Part shown: positions 7,725 to 63,474 of the stretch, in pieces
Position numbering within the stretch: the first letter of the stretch is position 1
How the letters are laid out: every line of letters begins with the position of its first letter
Assembly (NCBI GenBank): GCA_918797485.1
Contig: CAKKNE010000004.1
Coordinates: 1,488,001 to 1,552,000, forward strand
Source of the DNA: Pelagomonas calceolata
Taxonomy: Eukaryota
Direction: 5' to 3'
Length of the DNA stretch: 64,000 bases
Program-made: the position numbers and the translations under genes
The notes under the pieces: generated by a model
Told to the model about the DNA's origin: nothing
Databases searched by the model: none
What the model saw: only the letters and a program-made list of their open reading frames with translations

Positions 7725-8030
7725 TAGGGGACTAAAAGAAACAATCCAACACACGTTGTTTGAATGCGAGGCCTTTGAGGAAGAACGGGAGGTATTTCTT
7801 TCGAGATTATACTCGGTTTGCCCCCTCGCACGGCAATTGACCGATGAGGGCCGATGTCGCTTGGTCATGGGAAACGAGTTACCCCGGGAGATCGAAAATC
7901 CGTTGTATAGATACCTTTCTGCTAGTTCGCAGCTCCGGTTGGGCGTCCTGACCGAGCGGGGAGTAGGCTCCTAGGAGCTTGTTCCTTTTTTTTAGGTCTT
8001 CCTTAATTTATTTATTTATTTATTTATTTA
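7725..8030 (+). mobile_element. 3' end of a non-LTR retrotransposon (LINE) with (TTTA)n tail
   Basis: Near-identical to 46020-46153 (ETIQHTLFECEAFEEER..., zf-RVT-like C-terminus), continuing to a stop, a short 3' UTR and TTATTTATTT repeats. Confidence 0.75.
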
Positions 8031-8159: not shown

Positions 8160-10178
8160 ATGGCGGACCCCGAGATCTTCATCGTCTCGCGGCTCAACGA
8201 CTGCTTCGGCCTGGACCTGACGCTCGTCGACTTCGACGAGAAGGCGCCGCTCGAGCTGCTCCAGCTGCTGCTCGACGTCCTCGCCGACCTCGACCCGCGC
8301 CTGCGCGGTGACGTGCGCGACGCCGGAACAGCAGAGAGCGCCGGGCGGGCGGCCGACCTCCTGCGCCTGTTAAAATATCCGCCCCTCCGCGACCGCGCCG
8401 ACGCCGACGGATACCAGAAGTGGGTCGACGCGGCCGCGGCCGGCGCCACCACCACGGTCCACCCCGCGCTGCACTGGCTGCTGGGCGACGTCGAGCGGCA
8501 CCGGACGCGCGCCTACGTCGCGCGCTTCCTCGCGCCCGTCGACGTGCCGCCGCACCTGCTCGACGACGCGGCGCTCCGCGAGGCCTTCGAGCACCACCGG
8601 GCGCTCCAGCGCGACTTCCGGGACGCCCACCGGGCGGTCGTCGCCTCGCGGGCCGCGGCGGCGCGCGGCGACGGCGGCGCGCTCCGCGCGGAGGCGCGGC
8701 AGCTCGAGGCCGAGCGCGCGCAGCTCGAGGCCAAGGTCGCGGCGCTCCGCCGGCGCGGCGCCGACGTGCCCGACTTCGACCGGCTCCTGGCGGCGACGCG
8801 GGGCCTGCGGCTGGCGCAGGACGAGGACGCGCGGCTCCGCGAGACGGCCGCGCGGCAGCGCGAGGCCGCGCGGCGCGCCGAGGCCGCGCGGGCCCTGCGC
8901 GAGGCGCGGCTCGGGCGCCTGCGCGCCGGGGTCGGCGCGGCGCGCACGGCGGACGAGCTCATCGACGTCGCGCGGCGCGACGTCGAGGCGCTCGAGCGCC
9001 AGGCCGGCGCGGCGGAGGCGGCGCGGCGCGCCCCGGCGGCGGCGGCGGCGCGGCGCGAGGACGCGGCGGAGCTCCAGCGGCGCGTGGGCCACCTCGAGGC
9101 GCGCGTCGAGGAGCTGCGGGCGCGGTGCCGCGACGCGTGCGAGGCGCGCGGCGACGCGACGCTCCGGTCCTTCCGCGCGACGGCGCAGATCGTGGCGCGG
9201 CGCCTGGCGGAGAAGAGCGCGGCCGTCGACGGCCTCGAGGTCGACCTCGAGGCCGCGCGCCGCGCGCTCGCGGCCGCGCGGAGCGCGCCCGCGGCGGGGC
9301 CGGGGGGCGGCGGCGGGCCGGACGCGCGGCGCTTCGGCGAGCGGCTGCGGCGGACGACGCGAGACTACAAGGCCAAGCAGGAGCGGCTGCGGGCGCTGCG
9401 CGGCGAGCTCGTCGTCGCGCACCGCACCGAGCGCGTGCTGCGGGGCCGCGCGGGCGACCTGGACCGATTCCTGGACGGGCTCGAGGGGGCGCGGGGCGTG
9501 CGCGGCTACCGGGGCGCGCGCGCGCGCCTCGCGGCGGCCGCGGGCCGGCAGGAGGCGAGCGACGCGGCCAAGGCCGGCGAGCTCGAGGCCGCGGCGGGCC
9601 GCGCGCGCGCGGCCGCGGGGGCGCTCCGCGCGCGCAAGGCCGAGCTCGCGCCGCGCATCGCGGCCCTGCGCGAGGCGCGCGCCGGCTTCGCCGCCGCGCG
9701 CGGCGCGTTCGAGACCAAGCGCCGCGCGTACGACGCCGTCGCGGCGGCCGCCGAGGCCGACGTGCGGCGCCTCGGGCGCGAGGCGGACGCGCACCAGGAG
9801 GCCGCGCTCGCCGAGGAGTCGCGCTTCCACTACCTGAACTGCCTCTGCGGCGTCGCGCGCGCGGCCGCCGACCGCGCGCGCGCCGAGGACGCGCGCCGCG
9901 CGGCGCCCGCCGCGGCCCCGCGGCTCCTGCCGGACTTCGCGGGCTACGCCGAGCTCTACGCGCACAAGGGCGACCGCCAGCGCGCGCTCGTCGACCAGCT
10001 CCGGCGGAGGAAGGCCGGCCTCGACCGCGGCGCCGCGCCGCGCCGCCGCCAGCGCGCGCGCTTCGAGCACCTCCGCGCGCTCCTCGCGGCGCGCCTCGCG
10101 GCGCGCGGCGCGCGCGCCCCCGACGCCGCCGCGGCCGAGTACGACCTCGGCCACGCGCGCGTCGCGCAGTTCGCGTAG
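8160..10178 (+). CDS. IFT81: Intraflagellar transport protein 81
   Basis: N-terminal CH-like domain (FIVSRLN..FGLDLTLVDFDEKAPLELLQLL; LRLLKY; RAYVARFLAPVDVP) followed by long coiled coils and EESRFHYLNC; ~670 aa. Confidence 0.88.
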   Translation: MADPEIFIVSRLNDCFGLDLTLVDFDEKAPLELLQLLLDVLADLDPRLRGDVRDAGTAESAGRAADLLRLLKYPPLRDRADADGYQKWVDAAAAGATTTVHPALHWLLGDVERHRTRAYVARFLAPVDVPPHLLDDAALREAFEHHRALQRDFRDAHRAVVASRAAAARGDGGALRAEARQLEAERAQLEAKVAALRRRGADVPDFDRLLAATRGLRLAQDEDARLRETAARQREAARRAEAARALREARLGRLRAGVGAARTADELIDVARRDVEALERQAGAAEAARRAPAAAAARREDAAELQRRVGHLEARVEELRARCRDACEARGDATLRSFRATAQIVARRLAEKSAAVDGLEVDLEAARRALAAARSAPAAGPGGGGGPDARRFGERLRRTTRDYKAKQERLRALRGELVVAHRTERVLRGRAGDLDRFLDGLEGARGVRGYRGARARLAAAAGRQEASDAAKAGELEAAAGRARAAAGALRARKAELAPRIAALREARAGFAAARGAFETKRRAYDAVAAAAEADVRRLGREADAHQEAALAEESRFHYLNCLCGVARAAADRARAEDARRAAPAAAPRLLPDFAGYAELYAHKGDRQRALVDQLRRRKAGLDRGAAPRRRQRARFEHLRALLAARLAARGARAPDAAAAEYDLGHARVAQFA

Positions 10179-10859
10179 CCGGCGGACGTCGCCCCCCCCC
10201 CCCCCCCCCGCCCCCGTCGCCCCCCTGACGCCATCCCCGGCGCCGCGCCGCGCCGGGGTAAATGGCGGGTCCGCGCGGGCCGCGAAAAAAGGTATAAACT
10301 CCTCTAGGGCCACCTGCCCTGAGGGCAGCTCACCGTAGAGGAGTTCAAACCTTTCCCCTGCCGGGGGGTGCTCCGGAAGGGTAAAAATCCATGAGGGGTG
10401 CGATGCAGGGGGAAATAGAGTGTGTAGCTCCGGACTTCCCCGGCAGCGTAGTGTAGTTGTCTAATCACTGGCAGCTGCCATTGCTTGACTCTTTGTATCT
10501 GCAATTATTTGCCTTCTGAGCATGTCCTTGTGCATCATGATCTCCTCTTCAGTGGAAGTGATACCAAGAGTATCAATTGGTGAAGAAGGATCGGGTGCTT
10601 GCATTCCTCAGCACCAGTGAGCTTCGTATGAATTCTCCAATGAGCTTATTCTGTTGCTTTACCGTAGATTTTAGCTTTGTCAACTGAGCTTCCACTTTAT
10701 CTACCTTCCCCGGGCCTATAAGCGTCCCTATCTCCCTTAGGATGGGAAGTAGCCTAGGCGGCGGGTAATACAAGTACGGGTCACGGTCACGGAACCTTGT
10801 GCTTGGATACGTCTCAGTCACGGTTGAACCTTGGGATTCTACTAGACGTGTATTTCCAT

Positions 10860-11340
10860 TGCAGGGGGCGATGGTCACGGTTTGGTTTTAACTTTAAGAC
10901 TTTTTAAACTTATAAACCAGGGTTAGTAGCCTGAGTAACTTGAAATCATGATAACTACTAGTAATCATGAACTTAATCATGATGATGATTGATTAATTAA
11001 GTAAATCTAAAAAGGAACAACTTGAACTTGAAGCCTGCCAGTGAGCTCTTACTTAAGAGCCTCAGGCTTCTTCCCGGGCCTCAGGCTGCTCAGTCAGGAT
11101 ACTACTAGTAGTACTACTTCCGAGTCGAGTGCCAGTCACGGTGCCAGGTGACGGTCACGGTCGCTGGCGTCAGTCTGAGGCCCGACCCGGGGCTGCCAGT
11201 GGCCAACCTCCGAGTCTGAGCCTGAGTGAACCGTGACCCGGCGGCCGGGCGTGACTCGGACAGCCTGACTCGGAGTCACGGTGGCCACGGCAACTTGAAT
11301 ATTTCCATCATCATGTGCCAGTGTGGAGACCACTGGGACC
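10860..11340. repeat. Dense cluster of recurrent 6-8 nt words (one of about 10 such intergenic tracts)
   Basis: Consists largely of GCCAGTG, AACTTGAA, ACTCGGA/TCCGAGT, TCACGGT, AGCCTGAG/CTCAGGCT, TACTAGTA, ATCATGAT. Confidence 0.8.
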
Positions 11341-11528
11341 GAAATTACAAAGGCGGTGGGTAAGGACGTCTAGAACGACGTCATGTGCGCCCTGCGCTTT
11401 AATCCCGTACTAGTGTTAGTACAGATGATAAGTCTGATAAGTCACGGTTGTACCTACGGTACCGTAGATACTGTATATACAATTGCTTGTACCTACGCTA
11501 GAGCACGTAACGCCCACGCCCAATCACC

Positions 11529-11927
11529 ATGCAAGACGGAGCAAGACCAGGACAGCAAGTTATCGAAATCATCTTGCCAACCTATTCTATGAAACCGGCC
11601 GAAGATGAAAAATTCTACCCTTCAAAAATCAGACAAATATGCACCGAGGCGTTAAAGGATGAGCTAGATAATAAAGAGTATTTCGAGGATGGTGCCAAAG
11701 ACTGGATCCTGACCATTGGGAATAAAATCAAAGCTCAGGCGAAGAGCCTCAATTTGCCACGATACAAAGTAATTGTACAAGTCACAATCGGACAAATGAA
11801 AGATCAAGGTGTAAGTGTCGCATCAAGGTGCCTCTGGGATCTTCTCTTTGATAATTACACTTCTGTTAATTATACCAACTCTTCCCTATGGGCTAATGCG
11901 ATGGTTTTTGGATTATATACCGATTGA
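11529..11927 (+). CDS. TCTEX1D2: Tctex-type dynein light chain (TCTEX1D2-like)
   Basis: PTYSMKP...LNLPRYKVIVQVTIGQMKDQGVSVASRCLWD..DNYTS..YTNSSLWANAMVFGLY is a Tctex-1 family signature. Confidence 0.85.
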   Translation: MQDGARPGQQVIEIILPTYSMKPAEDEKFYPSKIRQICTEALKDELDNKEYFEDGAKDWILTIGNKIKAQAKSLNLPRYKVIVQVTIGQMKDQGVSVASRCLWDLLFDNYTSVNYTNSSLWANAMVFGLYTD

Positions 11928-12399
11928 ATTGAGTCATCTGGTTCCACAGCTTAAAGAGGCTAAAAGTGCAGATATGATATTACTATGGTAATTCACGCCA
12001 GTGTATCGTGCGTACTAAACGCAACAGGGCATTTAGAGGTTGCTTGACCCTTGTCCGCTATGCGCATGGGCAGACCGACCTTTTAACTCGAAATGGACCT
12101 AAAAATAGAAACCTGCAATGCAGAGCGAAATAGGGAGGTCTATATGTTTCATTTATGAGGGACAGTTTTCTCGAGGACCGGCACATAAGGGATAGAACTC
12201 AAACTCGAGGTTGAACTCAGACTTGCCAGTGAACAAGCACTCATACGAAGAAGTCTTGTCACTGGCCGCCGGTTTGTCACCGTCATTTTCGAGATTTTTA
12301 GGGTGTTCAAGTTCCCTTCCCCCTGATCATAACAGCTTTTATGAGATTTGTTACTCTACTAGTAGCGACACCACATCGGGCCACGAGCACGGCCCGGGC

Positions 12400-12930
12400 C
12401 CCGGGGTGTCTCCTAATCTGAGATTCGAGTTCCCAGCCTCTTGGCCGGCGCCGATTTTGGCTACGGGGTCCCCAAGGGTCCCTTTGTACGCCCCGTGACC
12501 GGGGTGGGGGGAAGGGGTCACTTTCGCGGCGAGACGCGGTCGCGAAGTTGCCCATCTGGCAAGGAGCTGTACCTCTTGCATCTGGGGCCTAACGTGCGGG
12601 TATTTTAGGAGCTCTGGCCCGAAAAATCAAAACTCGCTTCTATGCAGGTAATTTGGTCTCCCAGGGGGCCTCGGATACCTATGGCGTGGGGCGGATGCGT
12701 AGGCGCGGCCGGGTACCCGATGGGCTGCCAGATAGGTCGCCGACGCGGCACGAAACGCCACTGGCGCGACCTTCGCAGGCCACTAAAATTTCCAAACCTA
12801 ATAGTTTCGCTTACCCGTTTCAGTCACGTCCTAGAGGGGTTCCCAGGCCCCCTCGGCTCGATTTGGCGGCGGCCAAGACGTCTAGTTATAGAGATACGGC
12901 AAATTTGGGGTTTGGTGTCACCCCCCGTCC
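12400..12930. repeat. Dispersed repeat family R1, copy 1
   Basis: Shares blocks (AAAACTCGCTTCTATGC.GGTAATTTGG; GATGGGCTGCCAGATAGGTCGCC; TATAGAGATACGGCAAATTTGGGG) with 36240-36900 and, inverted, with 50870-51340; a short piece also occurs at 47490. Confidence 0.85.
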
Positions 12931-12931
12931 A

Positions 12932-13661
12932 CGAGCTGAAGGGGCATTTTCGCGTTGCGCGATTTTTTAGCGTTTTTGGTATTTTCTGCCTTTAAAATGC
13001 GCGTCTATCTCGGCCGGATCGTCGAGTTAGACCGCGAACCCACTTGCGAAGTGGGCCCGGAGCTCGCGATCTATCGAAGTGTCACGGTCACGGGGTGCGA
13101 CGAGCATAGAGGCCGTCGCGGCGAGCAAGCAGCCCCTTTTTCATCAGCAGCCTTTCAATAGCCCCTCCCCGCCGCGATTTCGGTTGCTCTGGGGCCTCGC
13201 AGCGTTGGATATCGTAGAACGTTTGCGGCTGCCCATGGGGCAGTTTTTCATGCGTTCGCAGCCCCAAAATTCGTAGAGCTAGCCCCACCCGCGAAACGCC
13301 GAGACCGTCGGATCGGCCTCACGCGACGCCAAGACGGTCACGATGGCGCATGAACTTGCCCGTAGCTTCGCCCTGTCGTGCCCGGGCAGCAGGGCGTACA
13401 CTTTTTAGCAACCTCGCGACGAGATTTTGTGCTTACGAAAGCGGTTGGCGGCGTTGGCGCCCACAGAGGCCGCGGGACCACACGCTCTCGCCGCAAAGCA
13501 ACGCACTGCCAGCCTAGGTGCCAATACGCACTCCCGAGGCCCGCGCTGCCTCCGGCGCCGCTTGGGGCAGCCAACGACGCGCATTTTAAAATGCAGACAC
13601 TACTAAAACGCTAAAAAAAATCGCGTAACTTCGCCGTAAGGCGAAAATGCCCCTTAGCTCG
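12932..13661. mobile_element. MITE-like element with ~75 bp imperfect terminal inverted repeats
   Basis: CGAGCTGAAGGGGCATTTTCGC...TTTAAAATGCGCGTC at the left is the inverse of GACGCGCATTTTAAAA...GCGAAAATGCCCCTTAGCTCG at the right. No coding capacity; an internal 45 bp recurs at 58910-58958. Confidence 0.7.
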
Positions 13662-13846
13662 CAGTCACGGTGTCTAGTCTGGACTCTGGTGCCCCCCCCA
13701 TATGATACTCACTGGCAGGCTGCCAGTGAATTTTAAGGACAAGGCGTGCCGGTCATTACAAACAAATGTACTACTGACCTGCAGTTCTAGGCAAACCTGT
13801 TCGCCTCGATAACACAAACCGCTCGGCGTGAGCCTTCGCTGTCGTA

Positions 13847-13889
13847 ATGTATGTATGTATGTATGTAATGTATGTATGTATGTATGTAT
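13847..13889. repeat. (TATG)n microsatellite
   Basis: About 10 units of TATG with one interruption. Confidence 0.9.
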
Positions 13890-14020
13890 TAGAGTCGCGG
13901 TCCGGTAAGAGTTTCGTTCTGACAAGTGATTCTCCTCGAAAGATTCCCCAGGATCTTCAAAGAAAAAGGGCAGGCTTGAAGAATATCGCATAAAGCGCCA
14001 CCGGGTCCGTCTTCTATCTG

Positions 14021-17000
14021 TTATGTCCCCTTGTCAACGCCAACCATGCTATTGGCTCTAAGTAAATGGACGATAGGCACTGCTAATTCATCAGCGAGTG
14101 CCTTGGCAAGCCAATTGAATTTGACACAGCTTCGTTGGGTATCCAGGCTGGCCGTTATGTGAGACAAAAGTGGATCTGGAGCAAAAAACAATTCTTTTCC
14201 CATGGCCTGGGTCAATAGGGCATCTCGAGGTGCGTAAAGCTGTGACAAGGGGATGACTTTGCACGGAGGTGTGTTACTATCGATTATCTGCGAAGATAAA
14301 TGAGCTTTTGCGCGTCTAGTACCGAGGAATTGATCGTTTCTGAGGTAAGGCATGTTTGGGTAAAGTGGAAGAAAGTGACCTTCATCACATTGAGATTGAG
14401 TTAGATCAGCAACAAGAGAGTCAATGACATGCTTCATCTCAAATGCAATATGCATTGGCGCTTCATCTATTGTATTCAAAGGAGAACTTCTGCACCACCT
14501 TTGGATCTTGTTGCTGGCATGCGCATGCTGGTGACTACCAACAAACCATTCGGGAATATGCTTGTTGATGACATCACTGGCGCACAGAATTCGAGAGACC
14601 GCAGTGTCAGCAAAACACTCCCAGGGTAGCACATGAGCTCGCTCGGAGCAGAGAAGTGTGATAAACGACCCGTTCTCATCCTCAAAAGTAGTCAAAGCTG
14701 AAAAAAAATTGTGCGGAAGCGCAATCATATGAGCGATGCGCTTGATGATACACCTCCGATGTTCAACTCTATTCATCCTCACCTTCACACGCCGTGTACC
14801 TGCAAATGCGCCGACAAGAGAGGCAGAAACCGCGTCGAGACCTTGATTAAATTGACCAAAGGTGATCATGTGGCGCCAACCAAGATGCGGGGCATAGACA
14901 ATTAAAGAATTGGCAGCGTGGATCGCGTACGCAGCTGGTGCACAACAAAATTTCGCGATTGTGCAATCTGCAGACCAACGGCGTAGACGACGCATCCCAG
15001 CAGCGAACTCACGAAGAGCACCACGGTTTCTGCCTTGTAATTCGTAGAGGTTGAGGTTGCCTAGGCGATGGTGGCTCACGTTTGCATGCATTCTCACAAG
15101 ACACCTCCAACAAGCAAGGGAGTCAAGCACATGGTGTTTATGGTTTCTATGTTGGCTACTGGCATTATGGTAAGTGACAAGAGGCCAGGTCAATCTGCGA
15201 CGCACATCACGCTCAAAGATAACAAAGATGTCAAAAAGCATGAGATTTTCATCTATCATTGCTCTATCTGCAACCGCAGCAAGAAGACGGAGCAAGCGCT
15301 CAAATATCAGTCGCAGATTTGCAAGGACAGTGGAAGCTGCAATAGGAACCAAAGGGACGAACAAACCATCAACGAAGAGTCGCAACAGTATTTCCCGTGC
15401 CTCCCACCAGTGGGCGATGGCACTTAAAGGATCATCTTGAATGTATCGCAACTCTGCAACGTTGAGGTAAGCATCGAGAAGAAGAAGAGGTTCACTTATC
15501 ACTGCGGCAAGTTCCAGTGCATGGTGTGCTGCTACATCAATTTCATCAGCACTCCCTTGTTGTCCCTTTTGTTGCATGGTAGTTTCTGCAAACACTACAC
15601 CAAGGCTAGCTGAGGCAAAAGCTGCAGCGGCATGTGCGACACCAAAATAGTCGTCGATTGCCTTAAAGCATTCGAGTGCTTGTCGGTACCAACGTGGGGC
15701 ACCGACCGGATCACAAAAATTGTGAGACCGGGAACAGAGTGACACTTCATTGGTCACGTTTAAATTTATTTTCCTTCTAGTAGATGCATTGACGATGTTT
15801 GGTTGGTGTCGGTGGAGTACAGCGCCACAAGAACCATCAACGCATGAAAGTGCTTGTGTCGCCTCAATTTTTATGGCAACCTGCGCCTGACCCTGAAGCT
15901 CATAGAGTGCGCCAAGTTCATACAGCCCTTGCACGGATCCAACACGAGAAACTACAGACTCAACAGCAGCAACCGTGGGGCCAAGTGACCTCCATGCCAT
16001 CTTAGGTTGTCCGCCTAACAACGCTACCTGTGCAAATAATTTACCAAGGTCGACACCTTCTTCACAAGAAGAGACACCCCTCCCCTTAATGGGCATCTCC
16101 CACAAGAAGTTTGGTTGGTGAGTTATCGTGGGGCTTGCCAAGCCAGGTAGACGTTGGCGAAGGCGTTGAATTCGCCGGAGGGCAGTGTGCGCACTCACAG
16201 CCTTTCCACAAAGAACTTCAGTTTCAGTATAGTGCGATAAACTGGCAATGCGGCGGCGACTTGATGCTGGCCTTGTAGTTAACACCTGCCTTAGGCAGTG
16301 CGACGCAGAAACGGGGTCACACTGTTTGGCTAGGAGATGAGTAGCAAATGATGCAGCATGCTGTATTGCAATTTCAAATTCCTGTGATGTAGTGTGTGTT
16401 ATATGTGTTGTACATAGCCGATGGCGTTTGGAAAGAGTAGTGTCAATCTCCAACAAAGCGTTGTTCACAAGTCGAACGTCACATGCGTTAACGTGCTGCT
16501 TTACCAGCAGTTCGGTCGTAAATTGGAACTCGTGGATATCTTGCGTCACAATTGAATCCATGGCATGGTGATTTGTTCCCCAATCTGCTATAGGAAATGT
16601 ATTTTTATTATCTTGCTCACACTCGAAGTGCTGGTACAGGTCCGCAAGGACAAGTTTGCAGTGCGTTGAGCCAGTCCTATCATCACTTTGACGGGCAGCT
16701 ATGACGCATAATTCACGTCGCAACTTTCTTCTTTCATTCATGTCATTGCGGAGTGCTAAAATTGCCACGCAAATGTCAAGGACTAGAAGTGTGTATGCAT
16801 ATTTTGCTCGTCGGTCAAGTGCTCGTGCAAGAGCTCTGAGTGCTGTATACCCCAGCGAACATGATAGAGTAGAATAAGCTAGTGGACTTGCATGAACCCT
16901 TGATAGATTAACATCAAATTGAAGTGCATGAGACGGGAGATCGACCTAGATATAAATTGAGTGCATGGGTTTTTAAAATACATTTGCTCTGGCTCTAGGC

Positions 17001-18853
17001 TGGCTCTGTGGTTGTGTGTTGGTCTAAAACACACGTTGCCTCGAACAGCAACATTTCAGCAATCCGAATTTCCTGCGTCGCTGCATGGGGACTCCTATGA
17101 CCGCGCCTGATTTGTTTGCAAACACCCATGGATGAAACGGCATTACGAGAACCATAAACACCTTTGAGATAGCTGAGGCCAAGAGCAAGGGAAGCCTTAG
17201 CCCGCGGCAAGCTTGCCGGGGGCAGTGCCGACACAAGAGAAGCCAGTCGTCCTTCAACAAGTCGAGAGGTCGGCGAGGACAATTCACCCCCGCACCCAAC
17301 AGAACTATTATCGCAAGTTGTATCGCAGAATTCCACTTCCAGGCTACGACGTACAGAGACAAAATCAAACTCTGTTTCGTCCAGCATCAAATTTTCTCCG
17401 GTTAATGGCGAAAAGCCGATGGCCTCCATTCGCAAATCTGATAGGGCAAGGGCCTCCAGCTCCTCAGCAGCAACAAAGAGAAGTTTCCTACGAAGCGTGT
17501 TTGCCATGCCAAAAGCTGATGCTATGCCAGACCAAGATAGCGGTGGAAGTGCAGAGCACCAGCAGCCAGTGCGAAACTGTTGGGGCTTTGTTGTTTCACG
17601 TCTGGTCCATTTGCAGATAAATCGACGCACTGGACGTACATGGACCTATACTTGCGACAGATCGACTGCTTCAGATAAAAGCCGGACACTGTGCTGCCTA
17701 CGAGTGCTAGGTGTGCAATTGCCTCGTCGACTGTTAGCCTGCTTCTAGCTCTAAGCACAATGTCGACTATATCATACACCAGCGCTGAAGTGCCGCGGCG
17801 AAAAGCAGCAAGATCACTGGCGTCGAGAGAGAGAATGTCTAACAAAAGCGGAATCTCATGACGAGTTGATTTGATGATTTTTGCGGCACACAACTCGTCA
17901 AAGCGTTGAACAAAACGGCAGACTAGACGACAGAGGCGTGCACAACACTGGCGGCAACGCAAGTCATCATCCAACGTTGTAGGTCTATTAAGACCATCAC
18001 CAAAAGTTAATATCCGAAGTGTGGCTGGTTTAGCCATTGTTGCATGTTCCAGACGATGGAGAAGAGCCTTTATTTGTGCCCCACAGTCACGCCAATTCTC
18101 GTTGCAGTATGACATTTCTGCTGCGCGCAATGCCTGTTCCAGTGCAGTTTCTTGACTTGGTGAACGCTCTCGCTCTATTGTTTCTGTGACTTTTAGTGGT
18201 GAGGGTCGTGCCACAACCGCCGACGTGTAAGAAACTTTAAGGCAAAGGTTTCGCAGCCAAGTGATGGTACATGGAGCTGACTCTGGAGCTCTTGGATACG
18301 AGGAGATTGCCGCCATTTCTGCAAGTGGAGCACAAGCAACCTTGTTATTTGATTTAGGTTCGGAGACAATATTTTGCAGTTGTGATGATCTCAAAATTGT
18401 GCTAATACATCTGTTGAGGTTACGACAACAGGTTCTGTAATCAGCGGTACGTTGTCGCCGGTAGGAAAGATAGGCTGAAAACAGTGTCGGTTGTTGGGGC
18501 ATGTACTGAGTGTCTTGCTTATCTTTGAAGATGGTTGCATCCGCAAAAATATGTTCATCAAGGTACTCGAGGAGCGAGTCAACTCGAGGCGACGTGCATG
18601 AATGCTCATGGGTGTTTGGTAGGGCTGTACCAGGTAGCGCAGATTTTGGTTCTTCAGTGGAGATTGCAGACAGGGTATTACATAGCGCAAGTTCTGCATC
18701 CCAGTCTTCGTTTCCCGCTGGGCTCCCCGAACTACCCGAACCGCCGTGTATTAATTGGCTTGACTCAATCAAGAAATTGTTTGTCAGTTGGTCGGGTTCG
18801 AACGAAAAGTCGGCATCCCAGCAGCGTCCTCCCGGGGGGGTCGCCCTGGCCAT
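14021..18853 (-). CDS. Large (~1570 aa) uncharacterised helical/TPR-like protein; introns 17646-17701 (GT-AG) and 16946-17000 (GC-AG)
   Basis: Three consecutive ORFs (443, 211, 915 aa) join in frame through two short introns. TPR-like segments (LLDAYLNVAELRYIQDDPLSAIAHWWEAR) and an HVLPWE motif near the C-terminus. Confidence 0.6.
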
Positions 18854-19329
18854 TGCGATGCGTCAAGCCACCATTCTCAGGAGATTTCTCAGCCAAACAT
18901 ATACCAGGCCTGCGGGAATAGACCCCAAAACCGTCAAGCTATCGTAGCACAGGGCTCTGGAGCACGGATGAATTTTAATTCAAATTTTTTCATGCCTCGT
19001 CGCGCTCACGCGCCCACAAACACGATGGCAGGGCAAAGCGGTCCGGCACTCAAGCTAAAGGAGAGCGCGAAACCAGGACCCGAGCTGAGCGAGTCTGGAG
19101 GCAAGGCTACCTACCGGGATGGCTAGTTGTGGTGATGAGGCCCTCTGGTGTGATGAAGGCGCTGCCCCCTAAATCGGGTCTATAGCTAGTGCTGCCGCAC
19201 ACTCGATGGATTTAGGGCGCAACTCGAGAACAAGAGGCTTCAGGCCCTTATGTATCCCTGCGCGGAGTTTGGAGAAGCGTGCGTTGCAGGAAGTGGGCCG
19301 TTACAGGTGCGACTTGCCGCTTATTGCCG

Positions 19330-19740
19330 CCGTTCGGGCCGCAGTGTCGGGAATCATCGATTATGACCCCGCGCCGGTCCCCGGGCCCGTGGCTTCTCGC
19401 AGGAGCCCCCTCGAAGCTCTCAGTTCATCCTGCGTCGACTTCGATGCGGCCGCCGCGGAGCCGACGATTTCCAGCTTTTCGGGCGCTTGAAGTTGTCCGC
19501 GGTGCCCCAGGTGAACCCACCTTTATTTGAGCTGGGCGGTGCCCGCATCGCGTCGGAGAGCGCATCGATTGTGGTGGGCTCAAGAGCGAAATGGCCACTC
19601 GCGAAATGTGGTGCTGCCGCGCTCTTTTGTGGCGTCACGGTACCGCCTCGGTTGACCCCTTGGGCTGCCCACGGGCGCATTTTGGCTTCGCACGAGGCGA
19701 AAAAAAGTTCGCGTTTATCGAGTTTCACGGGTTTTAGACG
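19330..19740. repeat. Dispersed repeat family R2, copy 1 (copy 2 at 51540-51970)
   Basis: CATCGA.TAT.ACCCCGCGCCGGTCCCCGGGCCCGTGG.TTCTCG.AGGAGC...GATTTCCAGCTTTTCG.GCGCTTGAAGTTGTCCGCGG is shared and colinear. Confidence 0.85.
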
Positions 19741-20709
19741 CCTTCTCCCCCGGAGCCCGGATGAGCAAATTTGGCTGCAGAGTAAACTAAGGCTAAAGAT
19801 AAATCACTGGCGATTGAGCCCCGGAGTCCATCCGCGGGAAGACGAGATTGAAAACCCTTCTCACCCCGGAGTCCATCCCCGCTATCGAAATAACGACGCG
19901 TATTTTTGAAGAAAAAAGGGGCAGCGTCCCGAGCGACGTAGGAAAGAGGGTTATGCCCCTTTGACGAAGTAAATGAGGGTCGGGGTCTTTATGCACCAGG
20001 CTTCAGGCCCAGGTGCGGTGCCTGTCGCGTTTAGACCACGCCTCCCGAGCCGCTAACACGTCTAGGTACCTTTGCGCCGTAAATTCGGGTTTACCCTAAT
20101 TTCTCGGCGCGGAGGAGTCGTGGTCTGTACTCGACAGGTGCGGTGCGCAGGCCCTGAGGTCCTAGACTCTGAGTTTGCCAGTGGGCGTAGAGCCTAGAGT
20201 GAACCACATACCCAGCGGTCCGGCCAACCCTGGGCGGATCATCACTGCCCGCGGCACCGTGACTCAGGCCCGGGGTAGTACATCATCATAGCCGCGGCCA
20301 CAATCCTCACTGGCAAGCCCAGTGCAGGCCATTCACAGTCATCGTGATAGTAGCCTAAGTAGTCCGAGTCGATTGGCCTGGTCCGGGCGCCGGCGCAGCG
20401 GCAGCCTCAGGTTGGGCCTGAGCCAGAGCCTGAGCCTATCATGGGCCTCAGTAGCCTGAGCCTGAGGCGGCTAGCGGCCGCGGCCCGGGCCTGACTAGTA
20501 GCCCCGGGCCGCCAGTGACTCGGAGTCCCGGCTCGGGCGCGAGTTGCCTGAGAAACCAAGTTGCGGCAACTTGAATTGTTAGCCGGGGTCGTGGGGGCGG
20601 CCGGGCCCTATAGTAGTACAGGCTCGTAGGCTGGGTTACCGCAGTATATCATGTACAAGTGACTTCATAGATATATGCGTCTGTAACGGCGTAAGTGCAA
20701 AACGACTAC

Positions 20710-22266: not shown

Positions 22267-22933
22267 ATTACACTGCCGTGTGCTTGCTACCAATGTAATT
22301 GAGTTCTTCGGGCTCAGGCTAGTAATTGAGTTCTCCCGGACCGCCCGTCAAGGCCGCGGGCGCGGCAGACGGCCGTGGGCGCGGCAGACCGCCGCGGACA
22401 GGGCCCCGTGGTCAAGGTTAAAACTCGTGGCCGACTGGGATAGGATGTGGGGCGGACGCAGCAGTCGCAGTTGAAATTGAATCTGCGATCGCAGACAGCG
22501 GGCGGTGGGCCGGTCGCGAGCGGCGGACGCTATTTCGCGGTCAGGTCGCGGGCGGGACCGAACGGCCGTGGACCTGACAGCCCGGCCAGGGAGCCGGTGG
22601 GGCACGTGGTGTACCCGTCTCGCGGTCAAGGTACGGACTCGGTGCGGTCTTTCTGCGAACGGACGCGGCGCAGGGAAGTCGGAGGTCTCACAGGCCCCGT
22701 ACTAGTCACGGCAGACCAGTAGTAGTGGCCACTTCTAGTGGCCACTAGGAGTGCTACTAGTAGTCCAAGTTTGTCGTTGCGGATATATCAGTAAATAAGT
22801 GAATACTCAGGCTACCATGACTACGGCTAAAACAAAGCGACTCGGAGTCGACGATAGCGCGTGTGTGTGGCCAACTCTCGAGGACCTAGGTCCCACTTGC
22901 ATTAATGGAACGGCATCGAGTATATCCTCTCAC

Positions 22934-26054: not shown

Positions 26055-26807
26055 TTTTCCGTGACCAGCAGACTAGGGATGCAGGGGCAGAGAGTGAGCA
26101 ATTCGAGAGGAATGAGGTCTTCCGGCGTCTGCCAGATGTAGGGTCATTTTTGCAGATCGAAATCATTTTTGCAGAATCGAAAAAGCAAAATGGATTTTGG
26201 ACGCTGCGTTACGGGGTCGATCCACTGGCACTGCCCGCTCCACTTCCGAGTCCACTGGCACTATTAATGAGCTACTAGAACTCAAGTTGAACAGGGAAAT
26301 AAGGCCAACTTCCGCTGTTGGACCTCACTAGCTTAGCTAAGAACCGCAGGCTGGGCCGGAATTAAAACCTTGGGCCAACTGCCAGTGCCAACTGGTGAGC
26401 CTGAGCTCCGAATCATGGCAAATGGTGCTCCGACAGGTCCCTAAATGCCGGAGTACTCTAGGAGACCTGGCAGCGACCCCGGGCCCGGTGCATGTGCTTT
26501 CAAAATCATGATGGAAGTTCTATTTTAAGACGCTTCTACTAGAAGTATACCACACATGTCCCTTTTTAAGCGCCGGCTAGTTATCAATGCCAAGACCCAC
26601 ACGCCACCCGATGATGACATGAGGCGTGACTCCGCATAACGGCAAGATATACACAATCATAGGCCGATTCATACGCCAGAAGTTGCGATCACGCAGCTCC
26701 GCAGTCGGCTCATACACACACGGCACAAACCTCGGGGACCCAATTGGAGCGTGGTGGGCGCTTCATGCAAGTATACGTTCAATGCTATGCTGGCCTAGTT
26801 GTAATCA

Positions 26808-29686: not shown

Positions 29687-29704
29687 GGACCGGGGACCTC
29701 ACCT

Positions 29705-35997: not shown

Positions 35998-36239
35998 GAG
36001 ATGCCATAAGTTGCTGATGAATTCTCGGCTGCGTTTTGACTTCCTCCTACCCGACCTACTTTTCAGCTAGGTTAAACGTCCAGCGCTTCCGCAATAACCC
36101 AGCAGGGAATTTTGGAAAGATTGAGGGCCCGGGGTCCGTGACCGTGACCGTCGCGCTTCTCCATTACAGCCCGAACAAGCATGGAGGTAAAGTAAGGGGA
36201 CTGCTTTAGAGGCCCCTGCAATTAAGGGGGCGGACTCTG

Positions 36240-36900
36240 CCAGTCTCTGGTGGACTCCAAATTTGATTTTCGAGTTCAAGTTCCCAGCCACTTGTGCGGG
36301 GTCCCGAAGAGTCCTTTTGTACATCCCGAGGCCGGGCTGGGGGGAGGGGTCACTTTCGCGGCGACGCGGTGAACTTCGCGGTGATGAGGCCTGATGGTCA
36401 ACTTGCGGTATTTCAGCGAGTGCCAGTGAAAAACAAAACTCGCTTCTATGCTGGTAATTTGGTCCCCCTGCGGCCCTTGAGTACCATTGGCGTGGGTGGG
36501 ACGGATGCGTAGTATTGGGCATCGAGTTCGGCCAGGTCTTGAAATCCGTGAAGGTCACGACGCGGCCGGGTACCCCGGGCACAGAGGGCCCTACGAGTCC
36601 CCCCGACCCAATCCGCGGGTACAGGCTAACGATGGAGCGAATCCCTATGGTGGGTGCCGGCCCTTCCCGGGCCGATGGGCTGCCAGATAGGTCGCCTGAC
36701 GCGGCACGAAACTTGAACGCCACTGGCGCGACCTTCGCAGGCCACTAAAATTTTCAAACCTAATCGTCTCGGTCACTCGCTGTGGTCACGTCCTTATAAG
36801 GGTAAGGGTAAGTATGCCCCCTATTCTTAATTTGCGCGCGGCCGGGACGTTCAGTTATAGAGATACGGCAAATTTGGGGTTGCCAGTGGGTGTTCGCCCC
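36240..36900. repeat. Dispersed repeat R1, copy 2, containing an insert shared with 52030-52110
   Basis: Colinear with 12400-12930; AGAGGGCCCTACGAG.CCCCCCGACC...ATCCC.ATGGTGG.TGCCGGC interrupts it at ~36580-36665. Confidence 0.8.
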
Positions 36901-40690: not shown

Positions 40691-40733
40691 CGGTACCGTA
40701 GGTACCGTAGGTACCGTAGGTACCGTAGGTACC
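40691..40733. repeat. Tandem 9-mer (GGTACCGTA)n about 45 bp upstream of the AP1G start
   Basis: cggtaccgta ggtaccgtag gtaccgtagg taccgtaggt acc. Confidence 0.9.
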
Positions 40734-41249
40734 TCCCAACAAACTGGCTATTACCCCTTAAAGAGTACTGCGGTATGTCGCAGTTATGTAAAGTAGCAAG
40801 CCTGAGTCTTAGGCTGCCAACTGGACGGCTAGAGCGGCCGCGTGGGGCTATTCATTTGCGCAGCGTGGCGCCATCGACACGCCCCCGGCCCGGGGCCGTC
40901 TCAGGCTCAACTTGACTCGGACTCGGAAGCGATAGTGCGTTGGAAAGCTTTTCTGACGGCGCGTCCAGAGGTGTCGGCCCGCCCGCCGGGGCCGTGAGAC
41001 GGCCGCGCCGCGGTTACGGTGTCCTAACCGTGGCTGGTTAAAAAAAAGGCTCAACTTGAACTATTCAAGTGTCATCATCGCCGCGCCCAGCTCCGCGCCC
41101 GGGTCAGTCTTGGTGCCCGGGCCTCAGGCTAATACTTCTACCAATCATATAGGGCTCACGTGAAAACGAAAAGGTAGATTTTACGCATGAACCGTGGCCG
41201 TGACACTGAGGTAGGAGGGAGGGGGGCGATCAGCCTGGTAGGTCCACCC

Positions 41250-41750: not shown

Positions 41751-43394
41751 TGCGTTTCGAGCCTGTGCGGGTCAAGTCAACAAACATGATAATGAAAGGA
41801 ACCCACCAGAGCCAGCGGGGAACCCCACCTCCTACCTGACTTTGTGCATGTGCGAGATGTTAAGGACGAAGGACACAATGCCTCAGTTTCCAAACGTTTC
41901 CTGCGATTCCGTACTGGGACACACCTGAAATTGAAATGATCCCTTTCCATGACCGCTGGTAAGGACCAAGTAGTATTACTACAAGACGCCCGCGTGTGCG
42001 TGTGTGTATTTCTCCCTCGACGCAGCGCATACGTCCGGCGGCCACGGCTGGCCCGCGTCAACGACGCTTCTGAAAAAAAACTCCGAGTCGCAACCGTGGA
42101 CCCTCGACGGACGCGCGCCCCCCGCGGACATCACCACCCATCGATTGCGCATTGCCCCGTCGATGGCGTTTTTAAAAAGAATATCGGCGGGGAGGGGGAG
42201 GCATAGCCTCCCCCTCCCCCCCGAACCCCCCCTCCCCCTCGGGGGAGGCGTAGCCTCCCCCGGGCCCTCCCCCCCTCCCCTCCGTCAGGACGCCTACAGC
42301 ACACGGCGTCTCCAGGAATCGCCTCTGAGGACCCTCTGAGGGCTCCAGGAATAGAAGGGCAGCTCCGCGCAGCTCCGCGCCCTGGTGTATGACGTCATTA
42401 CAATTTACATGTAGAAAGGTACAAAAGGGAAAAAAGAGAAAAAAAAGATTAGTCTGGAGGCCACTACTAGTAGTAGTACAACTCATTCATCAGCAGGGGC
42501 GGGCCCCCCAAGCGGCGAGCCAGTACGGACCGTGACCAGTAGCCGTGGAGTGGTACGGACCGTGACCCGGGGAGTGATTTTTTTGTGCCACCGGCGCGGC
42601 CTATGTATGACGCCACGACGCGTTGTGACGATTTAAGAGCAAAAAACACAGTTTCCCTTGGTCTCGAGCGGAATGTACGAGGCCGCACTTTGTCCGTGGG
42701 TACGACGTGTCGTCGACAGCATACTCCAGACAGCATACTCCAGACAGTCGGCATAAGGTGTTCGGCCCATCTCGCGAAACGAAAGAGGAGCGCAACAGCA
42801 AGTTGCAGCATCTCAACGCCACTAGCACGCACCTTTCAAGTTCGTACCAGTGCATCACTGTGGCGATGTCCGACATCATGATTACAAATTGTCCTGGCGG
42901 CCTGCCAGTGCAGAGAAGTCTCTTGGGGCCGGTAGCCTGAGCGCTGGTAGTCAAGACTACGCAGCAGGTATTATATCGAGCGACTTGCTTGCTTGTAGCA
43001 TCAAAATAATTAATCAGTCCGCCAGTCTGACAGAGCCCAACGGCAGACAGGCTCGAGTGATCAAGTAGATGATTTGCCAATGGGAGGCGCTATCAGCGCT
43101 CAGGCACTCAGGCTACAGGATATTTGAGTTCAGCCCCCCGGGCCTCGGCTAAGGATGAGTAGCGAAGTCTCCCATCTCAGGCTCAGGATAGTCTCAGGCA
43201 TTATAGGCTGCGTCTTCTTTATACCCATTGCAATTTCACGATCCTCCTCCCAGGACGAGGGCGAGTTCATGATAGGTCGGACGCGACATAAGGCTGAGAA
43301 ACTGTTTGCCTGTCTTACGTTGTCCATAGCTACCAAATCCCCCTGTGTTATCACGTAAGGCACTCTAGGTAAGCTGAATATCCAATAGTCTTGC

Positions 43395-49086: not shown

Positions 49087-49905
49087 TCTAGTCGACAGGC
49101 AATTTCTCGTGTGCCCGCTCCTTCGTGAGCAGACTGACGTCCGAAATTCCGCCAAGGGCAGAAACGGGCCGCCCACACGCCACACAAATCGCTATTTGTT
49201 CTAAACGGGCCGCCCACACAATCAGGCTACTAGTAGCTTAGTTAGTTCTAAAGGTTCTAAAGGTTCGTTGTGGTTATACTATTTTTAGGTCTTCCTTAAT
49301 TACTTAATTAATTTATTTATTCAGGCTCTCCCCAAAAGCTGGCAGGACATCTTAGTTTCGTAGGCTGCACCGTATCACGAGCGCTTACTAGGCCATAGAC
49401 CCCGGGCCGCGGCGTGGCTGAGGCGACGCTTTGGTGCTGCCTACTGAACACATGGCCCTCAGGCTAGAGTGACACTAGACTTTCCGAGTCCTGCTGAGTC
49501 TCGTGTCACTACCCCGACGTGCCCTTGGGCGCGCTATGATCCAGGGGACTAAAAACAAAGCCTGGCGCTTGCTGGCAGTCCATCGTTCCCGGAACCCCTC
49601 TGAGTATCCGTCGTGTCGAAGGATACGCAAACACCGTGACGGCCGTCAGGCCCGATGGGTAGCCCAACACAGATCATGATTGCGACGCCTGGCACAAGGG
49701 GGCGGGGGGCCCGGGGGCTCAGGCTAGTGGAAAATTTTAAAATCGGGATTTCGTCCATGGATCCCTGGCAGGGGTGGGCCCCCTGCCCCCCCCTCCTGTG
49801 GGAGGCGACTTCCCCCCTATTAAGGGGATACCGGAGTACCCTAGGGACAGTGAGTCACGGTAGCCTAGGTAGGTAATAAAAGTAAACGGTGTGCTTGGAA
49901 ACGGT

Positions 49906-53137: not shown

Positions 53138-53987
53138 TGGTGCTGGTCGATAAACCGTAGGTATGCAACTCTCAACCCACCGTATCGTACGTAGCCGACA
53201 TGCATCGAGATAGTATATACCGTTTACGGTACGGTACGCTGTAGTGTTATACATGCCATTGGACATGTAACTTAGTCACTAGAGGCAAGTGCAAGTGACA
53301 CCTTGACTGTCACTAGAATCATATAGTAACCTGACTCGGAGGAACTTCAAGTTGAAGGGAGGCCGGGGAAGGTTCCTTCTCTTATCAGCTGCCGCGGCTG
53401 TCACGGTGCCGCCGCGGCCAGTCACGCCGATGGCTGTCACGCCGGTCACACTTCCCCCCCTACGTTCAGCCTGAGTGATATTAGCTTCAAGTTTGCCAGT
53501 TGGGCCCGGCCCGGTGCAGTAAATGCATCATCAGTGCACAATGGAGCTACTTCTAGGAGCTACTGGTGGCGCAACGTGGGAGGGGCCGTATACGCGGCCG
53601 CGCGGCGCCCTTTCGAGGCCTCGCGGGAAATTTTGCTAAGGCGCAGGTTCCATATGATAAAATAATGGGCTGTGCAAAGTTTGGTGCGGTGCGAACAGCC
53701 TCGCGTCGAGAAATCGGCTGCGACGCCGCGGCCGTATAGATGGTCCGTTCGCACCTTACTTCGCCTTAGCAGCCCGTTTCTTTTGCGACCCGTAGCTCGT
53801 GTACATTTGCTATGCGTACCGAAAGTGGCCGACTTTTTATGCCGACGCCATCGCGCGCAATGAGAGAGAGAGTGCTAGTATCGGCGTCTAGTATGTCAGC
53901 CACTCTCGCGGCCGGCGCCGTGCACGGACCCCGAGCAGCCGGAGCAACCCGGCCTTCTAGCCAGGGCGCATACTTAATGAAAACGCG

Positions 53988-55563: not shown

Positions 55564-56536
55564 CAGTACCTAGTGCTTAGCCAAGGAGCGTCCCAGGAAA
55601 GCCGAGCCGACACCAAGGTAAGTTTAGCCCGAGGGCGAAGTCTTGGCTTCTTGGGGTCTTTTACTATACTATACGTGCTGGAAGGTGCTGCAGCGGGCCA
55701 TCGATCGCACCCGCTACATCCATGAATGGGGCCGCCGTCGCGGCGCACGCGGCGCCTACTAGTAAAGGCGGAAATGCGAACACCGCGGACAAACCCGATT
55801 AATAGAAGGACCACTCAACCCACAATTAAATAATAAGAAATTATGGCAGACTCGGAAAGTAATTTGAAACTATCCGAGTCATGATTACAAATACTACAAC
55901 TTCAAGTTGAAGTAAAATCATGACTTGGACTCGGAGAGTTAACTTGAAATGAGAAATAAGCAGAAGAACCACGGGTGTTACTGTCCTCAGGCCTGAGTCC
56001 GAGTGAGCCTGCCAGTGACTTGATCTCCGAGTCTAACTTGGGGGTTCAAGTTCTAGTACTAGCCGCCTCAGCAAAAGCCGCTGAGTAGTAGCCTAGTACT
56101 TACTGAGTACTAGTAGCAGGTCACCGGGTCACTTAGACGGGTCACTGTGCAAAAAGGGGCCCGGGGTAAAATGAGCGTCCTTATTTTAGCCTACAAGAGG
56201 CAAGACAAGCAGGGGTTGGGTAGCCTGAGTGCTACTGGCGCTGGCAGTGGCAAAGCCGGGTGCCTCCGAAACGGCCTTCTTATGACTGGCACAATTCTGA
56301 AACAGATAAGGGTGTGCCGAGCGAAGCGAAGGTCGATTCCATCCATTATTTCCGATCTACGTAGAGATCGCGGCCCGAAGAGATAGTGGCGCCGCTGTCG
56401 GTGGGGGTCGAAGATCAAGCAGTACGTGCATTCTCACTGGTCTCCGATACGTGCATTCTCTACTGGGCATTTCAGCTTGAACAGAGGTGTCGGTCCTAAA
56501 GTATCTAAAGCGTCGCAAAAAGGGAGGCAACTCTCT

Positions 56537-58513: not shown

Positions 58514-59146
58514 TACGCGTTATCGAGTCTGCAATTATATCCTTTGATTTATATCCACGGCGGTGTGACCTAAGAGATAACCTGGAGCATGTCGACGGTA
58601 CGCAGGACGGTGCAAAATAATTTCCAGCCACCTCTGCTGCCATAGGCTAGATCGATCATACTTAGCCCGGCGGCCCGTCACGGTTGCGGCATCACCATCA
58701 TAATGATTGTGCATTTACCCAGCCTGAGCCTGAGGCGCTCAAGTTCAAGCCTGAGTTTGGGCGTACATCATGATGATTGCCAGTGCAACACACCGTGACT
58801 TATCCGGCCACTGGCAAACGCTTCCCAGTCAAGTTCACGTTCCTCCGAGCCGGCTCTTAACCCCCCCTCCAAGCTCTTAACCCGCACACGGGCGGCACGA
58901 CTTCACGTTGTGGGCCCGGAGCTCGCGATCTATCGAAGTGTCACGGGGTGCGACGAGCCGCGACGAGCGAATTATTAGCGACATGTGCGAATTATTAGCG
59001 CGTGAATGCCGAAAGCAAACATGTGTCTTTTATGTATTCTTTTTTAGGGTTCTGCATTACAACTCCGGCCAGGACTTGATGAGAACTGTGCTTTAGACTG
59101 ATCTTGCGACGAGTCCGCAGCTCCTCAATTGAGGCGTCATAAAAAG

Positions 59147-62261: not shown

Positions 62262-62810
62262 TGCGAATGTGCAAGACCAAAGGAGTACGCACCTTTGGGA
62301 GTACGGCGGCTGAGATAGTCTGCCGCGGAGCTACCTTAAATACACTAAGTAGTTTTGGTTTTAACTGTGTTTATTACGCGTTGCGTGTTGAAGGGTGATG
62401 TAAGTGTATAGGAAGGGTATAGGATAGGGGGGGGGGTATTTCGCCCTATTTATCGCACTCCCCCTTTTCATGAGGGTAAGCTCTTGTTTCCCTTAGGAGA
62501 ATATGGGGTGAAACTTGAAATTGTCCTCCATCCTTTTCGTTCGTTTCATTGAACTGTGCATTTTGGTATATATCATCAGGTAGCACATGGGCATTTGCCT
62601 CTCAATGAATACACTTAATCCTCCACGTAAGAATTGGTAGAGTGTTCTGTAGGTTGGTTTGTGGTGGTCGTAGTTCGTGATAATGTAGCGTTGAGATGTC
62701 GAATGATTATGTCAAATTCCTTAGTCGTCATACCCGCTGGGTTGCCGGCAGCTGCGCGCTGTTGGCTTACCGTTTTCTTCAATTTCCATTGCACCATTGG
62801 CAACTTGAAG
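62262..62810 (-). mobile_element. Copia-type family B, 3' fragment: LTR 62262-62457, PPT 62458-62468, degraded pol end
   Basis: LTR nearly identical to 29493-29686; minus-strand AAAAGGGGGAG abuts TGCG; upstream GNPAGMTTK resembles the Copia RNase H (N.AD..TK) motif. Confidence 0.75.
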
Positions 62811-63474
62811 TTGTCTCTTGGCTTTCAAGTTATGAAAAGTACCAGTCTATCCTGGTCCTTCGTCTATCGAAATGTGCGTTGTGGCAATGAATGGACAATT
62901 GACGCGCTCAGGCTAAAGCATAAAATTTTGATTTCCGATGTAAGTTCAAGTTCAACTTGACTCGGAAGTGGGGAACTTGAGTTTGATTTGTTCCTAGTAG
63001 TCTGTCCAGTCGCAGAATTGGATTCAGCGGCTGATTCGGCAGCTGATTGATTTCCGGACAATGCCAGTGGTACATTGTCAATGCTGCCTGCCAGTGCCAG
63101 TGCACGACCGGCGTGACCGTGACCGCCGTGACGCTGCTGCACGTATCTGCCATCTTTGTTGAAATGTATAGGAATTTCGAGCAGTGAATTCTCCGGGATT
63201 AATCTTGCTGTCGTCACGGCGCTGTTGGTATTATCATTTGGTTATGCCTAAGACTCGAGCCGCTGACGCCGCTGGTACCAGGTACCGTAGGTACGTTAAC
63301 GTGCGAGTGATACAAGGCCGGCAGCTGATAGTTTATGACACCAGGGCTGGAGTGGGAGGCTCAGAGTTGGTGAGAATATCACGTCGTATCGGAAAAATGC
63401 CGGAATAATGGGACAAACAAAGATAAAAAACCAGATAAGCACGTGATGGAAATTAGAGAAGCCAAGTGAAGTCA

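Follow-up and report, generated by a model that had tools for sequence, protein, structure and literature searches.

Excision footprints of cut-and-paste DNA transposons have long been known. The footprint of Tc1/mariner elements consists of TA, terminal bases of the element and a second TA, and the target duplication of Ac is 8 bp long. According to the accessible text of PMC5873905 and PMC5499845 (every paper cited here by accession or DOI is used within the portion of it that was accessible), hairpins formed on the chromosomal flanks give palindromic insertions around a loop base, together with microhomology joins. In Ac/Ds, a hAT system, the palindromic insertion is built on one loop base per end, which complements the flanking base, the join uses microhomology, the duplication is retained and the products are mixed, with 28 types in 128 clones (PMC5873905). 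Flank hairpins are also made by Transib and RAG (PMC5499845), members of the CMCT clade (EnSpm/CACTA, Mirage, Plavaka, ESTA, Transib and RAG), whose elements carry C-starting CA..TG ends and 2–5 bp duplications (PMC12730594). A RAG-like element, AanRAGL, with 5 bp duplications, is active in the pelagophyte Aureococcus (PMC9435367), and EnSpm and KDZ elements are present in stramenopiles (PMC12477816).

Here we describe a 64,000-nt stretch of the genome of the pelagophyte Pelagomonas calceolata (contig CAKKNE010000004.1; hereafter the window), in which short words in intergenic DNA follow a single insertion rule, segregate between alleles and, wherever the direction of change can be read, arose by insertion. 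Excision footprints as such are familiar; the rule grammar and the polymorphism of whole rule units are what is demonstrated here. The words resemble Ac/Ds footprints in their palindromic build, microhomology join and retained duplication, but differ from them in a 2-bp duplication, an invariant loop C from outside the target and a single dominant product. With Tc1/mariner footprints they share a duplication and what would be retained terminal bases of the element, whereas those footprints are TA-restricted and contain no inverted copy of the target. The CMCT clade offers C-starting ends, short duplications and, in Transib and RAG, flank hairpins of the kind proposed here; the 5 bp duplications of AanRAGL, however, are unlike the 2 bp seen here, and the non-redundant sequence analysed, about 0.35 Mb, yielded neither an element nor a transposase of this clade. 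No description of the rule grammar was found in the literature searched, with figures, bioRxiv supplements and older subscription papers, including the classic En/Spm tables, out of reach. The accessible text of three papers on CACTA footprints (10.64898/2026.08.24.746626, PMC3193017, 10.1101/342816) does not contain it, and no paper in the searched literature held three of six rule words as whole words.

A single insertion rule

The original prediction described ten intergenic tracts written in a small vocabulary of words. The words are real, but one rule stands behind all of them: a dinucleotide XY becomes XY-C-rc(XY)-G-XY, a net insertion of 6 nt, which adds two further members to the vocabulary, GCCGCGGC (12 occurrences) and CGCCGGCG (4 occurrences). 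The listed words are indeed enriched, appearing among the top 7- and 8-mers against Markov models of orders 2–4 (a ranking in which palindromes are counted twice). The top 8-mers all conform to the rule: TA CTAG TA, AT CATG AT, AA CTTG AA, GA CTCG GA, CA CTGG CA, CT CAGG CT, GT CACG GT, GG CCCG GG and GC CGCG GC. Earlier parses with 3-bp repeats (TCA-GGC-TCA, GTT-CAA-GTT) give way to a unit in which C-rc(XY)-G is enclosed by a 2-bp duplication. Extending the rule to 3 bp gave just 9 matches against 3.3 expected, mostly GC-rich or nested, and was rejected.

Positions 10300–64000 contain 185 rule words, compared with 14.8 (order 2) or 16.1 (order 3) expected, and all 16 possible words are present, each 4–16 times. 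The excess belongs to words whose middle is rc(XY), an inverted copy of the flank around a loop base on either side (185 vs 14.8); other middles give 234 vs 200, and right flanks other than the retained target duplication reach only 272 vs 209 expected, over 240 words. When the two fixed letters were changed, 13 of 15 control patterns returned 11–24 matches, and the remaining two returned 55 and 43. The former, XY-G-rc-C-XY (55 vs 15 in the window; ratio 2.8 in non-redundant loci), is the shifted phase of tandem rule words, of which there are 34 period-6 pairs; the latter is XY-G-rc-G-XY (43 vs 15). T/A and A/T versions of the fixed letters, as well as shorter variants, occur at chance. Outside the window, the 12 A/T-containing words number 517 vs 45.6 expected in 229 kb of low-GC sequence and 57 vs 11.9 expected in 118 kb of high-GC sequence, both from non-redundant loci that were chosen through a MITE end and are hence not a random sample. 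Within the same 229 kb, XY-CG-XY, XY-C-XY, XY-C-Y'-G-XY and XY-Y'X'-XY occur at 0.9–1.1 times expectation.

Contrary to the earlier proposal, the process is not sequence-specific: dinucleotides are used at 0.8–1.3 times their background frequency among rule words, with the exceptions of CG (0.34) and GC (0.60). TA-site words make up 25 of 659, which is not the TA-only targeting of Tc1/mariner elements. Across 407 sites, C is enriched directly 5' of XY (35% vs 27%, z 4.9), and C-XY-G contexts are enriched as well (47 of 407; with stricter filtering 46 of 277, against 19.7 expected); 173 of the 407 lack both the flanking C and the flanking G. An apparent depletion of G 5' of XY proved to be largely a filter artefact, its z of −5.0 moving to between −1.3 and −2.6 with a changed filter. 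Separately, the third base on the 5' side of XY is G more often than expected (32% vs 27%, z about 3.2).

Distribution of the words in the window

The words gather in the following fields, ten of which correspond to the tracts named earlier:

10860..11340: focal field, 190–670 bp upstream of the Tctex-1 gene; 25 words
20150..20640: upstream of the DRC3 gene; 16 words; alleles L031 and L070 carry extra units
22690..22930: small field between two 3' ends; 3 words within 22690–22850; allele L070 carries two more units (22807, 22918)
26200..26520: upstream of the TPR gene; 7 words; allele L031 lacks the units at 26223, 26396 and 26505 and has its own unit at 26252
40800..41140: upstream of the adaptin gene; 7 words
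42835..43200: 7 words, 5 of them inside 42900–43200
49400..49861: additional field, beyond the ten tracts; 9 words
53270..53520: 7 words
55757..56229: between two 3' ends; 12 words, 8 of them inside 55850–56150
58660..58860: 8 words in the divergent gap that separates APC4 from the WD40 gene (dynein intermediate chain-like)
62800..63130: 9 words, 7 of them inside 62900–63130

All ten tracts stand far above chance (300 shuffles each), with shuffle means of 0.04–0.27 and a largest shuffled value of 3. Exact words occupy 41% of 10860–11340 and 13–31% of the other nine tracts, with 22690–22850 being the weakest. From the focal tract, 29 units can be removed in two rounds, indicating nesting (5 units are nested); they account for 174 of 481 bp, so that about a third of this spacer consists of rule units. 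TRF found no satellite over the focal tract, in agreement with the earlier view that the mosaics are not satellite DNA, and Rfam returned no matches in the window.

Of all 185 words, 179 are intergenic and 6 genic, with gene ends placed by hand. Measured from these ends, the density on the 5' side is 0.6/kb within 100 bp of the start and 12–13/kb at 100–700 bp upstream; on the 3' side it is 7–9/kb at 100–700 bp downstream, and farther from genes it falls to 0.9–3.2/kb. The proposed enrichment near gene ends is thus borne out, with a peak at 100–700 bp, but the emphasis on 5' ends was too narrow, as 3' sides are also loaded; 55850–56300 and 22690–22850 each lie between two 3' ends. The result is an unusually clean mutational signature concentrated beside genes.

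None of the 12 A/T-containing words occurs in the first 10.3 kb, a high-GC part of the window of which 3.3 kb is intergenic. GC content per kb is 54–85% in the first 10 kb (mostly >65%) and about 41–64% thereafter, and A/T-containing rule words begin only beyond the step between the two at ~10200–10300. The step itself is sharp, from 83% in 9001–10000 to about 50% past the IFT81 stop, and is possibly the edge of a centromeric low-GC region. The layout of the window resembles the gene-bearing low-GC centromeric regions of P. calceolata (PMC9481584; 10.1101/2024.10.30.620910), and the low-GC region is thought to lack recombination (PMC9481584). In pelagophyte low-GC regions the intergenic share is 18% vs 11% (PMC9481584 supplement 2), a longer share that rule units may help explain.

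A Pfam search of 28 window ORFs recovered HSP60, IFT81, Tctex-1, LRR, WD40, TPR, kinase, adaptin, SET and APC4 domains. The LRR gene has its best named relative in DRC3 of the pelagophyte Chrysophaeum taylorii (58%). Many flagellar genes lie near or in low-GC DNA: IFT81, Tctex-1 and DRC3 within 8160–58520 of the window, and TTC21, ODAD1, CFAP43 and B9 in loci L004, L023, L027 and L065. The stretch 10300–20200 is present in twenty sequencing runs, mostly marine metagenomes.

Rule units segregate between alleles and repeat copies

Four units in the window are informative when compared with reads or repeat copies:

10976..10983: ATCATGAT; a 6-nt unit present in the window and missing from 4 of 4 wild marine runs
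10817..10824: GTCACGGT within a multi-copy repeat; 6 nt missing from most other copies (read depth without the unit 391/429, 122/140, 682/698 and 720/737)
13081..13088: GTCACGGT in a repeat; the copy at 58910–58958 is without the unit, and just a minority of read depth is without it, so that the direction is ambiguous
36710..36717: AACTTGAA in one copy of a MITE; plain AA stands at this site in the paralogue near 12755

Repeat copies within the window therefore differ by rule units; five 6-nt gaps were found among them, the clearest being AA vs AACTTGAA at 36710.

A metagenome search with a MITE end returned 90 stretches, 89 of which were used; nine are alleles of the window (eight longer than 700 bp, and L086). 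In 172 alignments (≥700 columns, ≥92% identity), gaps were kept only with 12 clean columns on each side; some of the aligned pairs, at 2–2.6% divergence, may be paralogous. Indel lengths peak at 6 nt (n = 36), compared with 8 indels of 5 nt and 3 of 7 nt. The insertion polymorphism that the original prediction had called for is present: an exact fit to the rule is found in 24 of the 36 clean 6-nt indels, compared with 1.1% when 6 nt are deleted at random from the same loci, and among the 12 misfits one event is counted twice, once per strand. Twenty-one of the rule indels arose de novo, with no tandem template, and three are tandem duplications. Recurrent micro-insertion is supported, with the words occurring as indels both between alleles and between repeat copies.

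All four informative events read as insertions: only one of three lineages carries the long allele, and the opposite pattern was never observed. Three of these events are clean; the fourth is ATCATGAT at 26505, a position at which L070 shows a gap of 9 nt. One event in the L027 group is at odds with substitution distances. Six rule indels accompany 72 substitutions in one allele pair and three accompany 76 in another, and three closer pairs show none. Rule units can serve as polarised markers for populations of this widespread marine alga.

Proposed mechanism and alternatives

We read the words as 6-base insertions that are likely excision scars of a cut-and-paste transposon, with a predicted 2-bp target duplication and C...G ends. 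The excision footprints suggested earlier remain the best reading that we can infer, although no matching element was found; a transposon is the probable source, the element itself being unseen. A flank-hairpin route is strongly implied. Each half of a word reads as a palindrome of odd length (to the left XY-C-Y'X', to the right the mirror image of it), and three marks of a flank-hairpin footprint are present, namely an insertion opposed to an empty allele, an inverted copy of the flank and a retained duplication.

On this route, an element would land at XY to give XY[C...G]XY. At excision a nick in the non-transferred strand, placed one base into the element, would free a 3'-OH to attack the opposite strand at the boundary, turning each chromosome end into a hairpin with the element's C in its loop. 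Host nucleases would cut each of the two hairpins at a point two bases beyond its loop, which would produce 3' tails ending in Y'X' and XY; these tails would be complementary for every XY, and annealing and fill-in would give one stereotyped product. A 2-bp duplication guarantees 2-nt complementarity of the opened ends and hence one product for all 16 dinucleotides, as observed, and a join aided by one more base pair, the third, would account for the enrichment of C 5' of XY. Since the flanking C and G are both missing at 173 of 407 sites, the target is not where the fixed C and G originate, and a constant element end is their simplest source. Repeated landing in the same gene-flanking windows, old scars included, would build up tandem and nested mosaics, which would persist best in a low-GC, probably low-recombination region. 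Other DNA-transposon relics lie in the same spacers as the rule words.

The described hairpin footprints are heterogeneous, whereas one product dominates here. The Ac/Ds loop base complements the flank, so the geometry required here differs from the one described in the accessible text of PMC5873905, and no paper in the literature searched demonstrates a hairpin geometry with an element base in the loop. The rule constrains the chemistry of the presumed enzyme to a 2-bp stagger and a flank hairpin that includes a single constant base.

A host nuclease of the SPO11/topoisomerase VI type, breaking promoter DNA with a 2-nt stagger, would require no transposon. Its ends would be filled in, extended by one untemplated C, sealed as hairpins by reversal of the 5' phosphotyrosine and rejoined. 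We consider both the nuclease and this series of steps unlikely, and the notion that such an enzyme leaves the fixed six-base hairpin scar speculative, with a small chance of being correct. SPO11 break ends do show weak bias and 2-nt 5' overhangs, with nick resealing possible (PMC11922745), and yeast Spo11 prefers C 5' of the cut (10.1101/2020.02.21.960211), the same bias as at rule words. Moreover, any dinucleotide is used, the words peak near gene ends, no element was found, and the annotated genes listed for P. calceolata include SPO11 but few transposases (PMC9481584 supplement 4). However, the accessible text of the SPO11 papers describes no hairpin or C-addition product, an invariant added C and hairpin sealing by SPO11 were not found in the literature searched, and whether religation can follow a double-strand break is described as unclear (PMC11922745). 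Other positional biases of the yeast and mouse enzymes are unmatched, as the words show G three bases 5' of XY and not A at −4/−5 or G at −3 from the dyad, and the C preference is also explained by microhomology. Word density is also highest in a low-GC region thought to be without recombination (PMC9481584) and zero in the adjoining high-GC spacers. If this reading were true, each word would mark one programmed break, and the genome of a globally abundant alga would be a readable historical map of break hotspots.

It is also quite unlikely that an end-joining polymerase, acting at ordinary breaks, copied two bases from the inverted partner end with neither a covalent hairpin nor an element. 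The locally templated middle bases, microhomology joins and intergenic sites would suit it, but the fixed C and G on both sides are left unexplained, and the T/A and A/T versions and shorter variants that occur at chance speak against it. Templated end-joining repair gives variable lengths, which further counts against this origin.

The same 8-mer would follow from the textbook loop-base rule if a hAT-like element had C-XY-G as its fixed 4-bp target, and the C-XY-G enrichment reported above agrees with it. That rule makes the loop base the complement of the last flanking base, but 173 of 407 sites have neither the required C nor the required G, as do most of the 21 de novo events. Such an element, very improbable overall, failed as a general source and could account for a minority of words at most.

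We give equally little credence to the words being binding sites under selection, recognised by a family of dimeric transcription factors that has four half-sites (ACT, TCA, GCC and CCG). They are enriched 100–700 bp upstream of genes and can be written as half-site pairs. However, a transcription-factor cluster would have few motifs in conserved positions, whereas all 16 dinucleotide words occur in roughly background proportions, are gained and lost as whole 6-nt units, and also fill 3'-3' gaps and dead repeats. In the one relative gene compared, the orthologue in relative L046 examined for the field at 58660–58860 (76% protein identity, different neighbour), there are no words upstream. Some rule words may possibly have been co-opted later as binding sites; for motif finders, the warning is that promoter "motifs" of this kind can be scars.

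Hexanucleotide microsatellite slippage, hardly credible as the generator despite the 34 tandem pairs and three tandem duplications among 24 rule indels, failed as an origin because 21 of 24 events occurred where no copy existed and the reverse-complement rule is beyond slippage, although it may extend existing words.

Search for the source element

On the transposon reading, the source should end in C...G and duplicate 2 bp of its target. Neither an element of this kind nor a matching transposase was found in the non-redundant sequence searched, which amounts to about 0.35 Mb. The inverted-repeat scan of the window with 2-bp duplications was noise-limited, and stricter scans of the loci gave no excess; C-start inverted pairs with a 2-bp duplication made up 205 of 2683, compared with 6.3–7.0% for other starts. 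In this sequence the suggested match between words and the ends of resident transposons was not found, no C...G family with a 2-bp duplication rising above chance. None of 13 large allelic indels is a C...G element with a 2-bp duplication, and none provides an element-bearing allele at a scar site. Transposases, including CMCT-type DDE enzymes, were detected neither in the 28 window ORFs (Pfam) nor in 118 locus ORFs. The latter derive from 458 ORFs of ≥170 aa, reduced to 235 by filtering for complexity and then to 144 representatives; from these the scan omitted the five longest, together with 21 that were window orthologues, overlapping frames or, in a few cases, short ORFs. Viral-contig searches returned no matches, and an 8.5-kb inverted pair in L009, considered as a transposase source, contains ordinary genes. 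Among the genes listed in the P. calceolata annotation are at least one Tc1-like transposase and SPO11, but not PF02992 or Plavaka (PMC9481584 supplement 4); this scarcity is weak evidence, because repeats were masked in PMC9481584.

Two elements in the window were considered as the agent:

12932..13661: inverted-repeat element of 730 bp that can be read as CA[C...G]CA; no other candidate matches the predicted type
20022..20137: multi-copy Mutator-like MITE with ends CTGTCG...CGACAG, a 9-bp duplication and a G-N7-C preference; 118 bp if the outer C/G of the duplication is counted

The first is a weak candidate, being nearly single-copy and also readable with a 4-bp duplication. Its TIR motif has no exact match in the 89 loci, and the L011 orthologue differs by one base. 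The second resembles the predicted element in its C...G ends, its multiple copies and its position beside word fields. It was first read with a TG duplication and was rejected when its copies showed 9 bp, a duplication that cannot yield a 2-bp scar by the hairpin route.

Neighbouring elements and a second family of insertions

A second, TA-bounded scar-like family (TA-CCG-TA, TA-CC-TA and a 9-nt TA-CCGTAGG-TA unit) occupies the same spacers as the rule words and looks Tc1/mariner-like. It supplies the top non-rule 9-mers and, by eye, five of six nine-nt indels; a TACGG insertion at 11493 is present in two of four runs. This family and other elements were located as follows:

40692–40733, 11450–11495 and 63275–63295 of the window, and loci L009, L042 and L004: TA-bounded family
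36224–36903: 680-bp hAT-like MITE with short inverted ends and an 8-bp duplication
10399–10870: dispersed repeat at about 15 times single-copy depth, which collects rule words
44835–46547: fold-back with arms of about 400 bp (90% identity) around a fragment shared with 7738–7878
49906–50713: 808-bp element with 62–90 bp inverted arms containing short subrepeats; no duplication found
29822–31642, minus strand: orphan ORF of 606 aa with no Pfam match and weak Atlas leads (best 0.90)
L023 11016–11544: TA-flanked MITE with near-perfect inverted ends
L002 9307–9863: MITE with an 8-bp duplication

Relatives of the 680-bp element lie near 12400–12920 and 50880–51320, and its copies carry rule insertions. 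The repeat at 10399–10870 reads like a coding fragment on the minus strand. The orphan ORF sits between repeated modules (29493–32280), with 148 bp identical at 29705 and 32133 and 197 bp shared at 96% with 62262 (62262–62457); this arrangement is possibly a retroelement.
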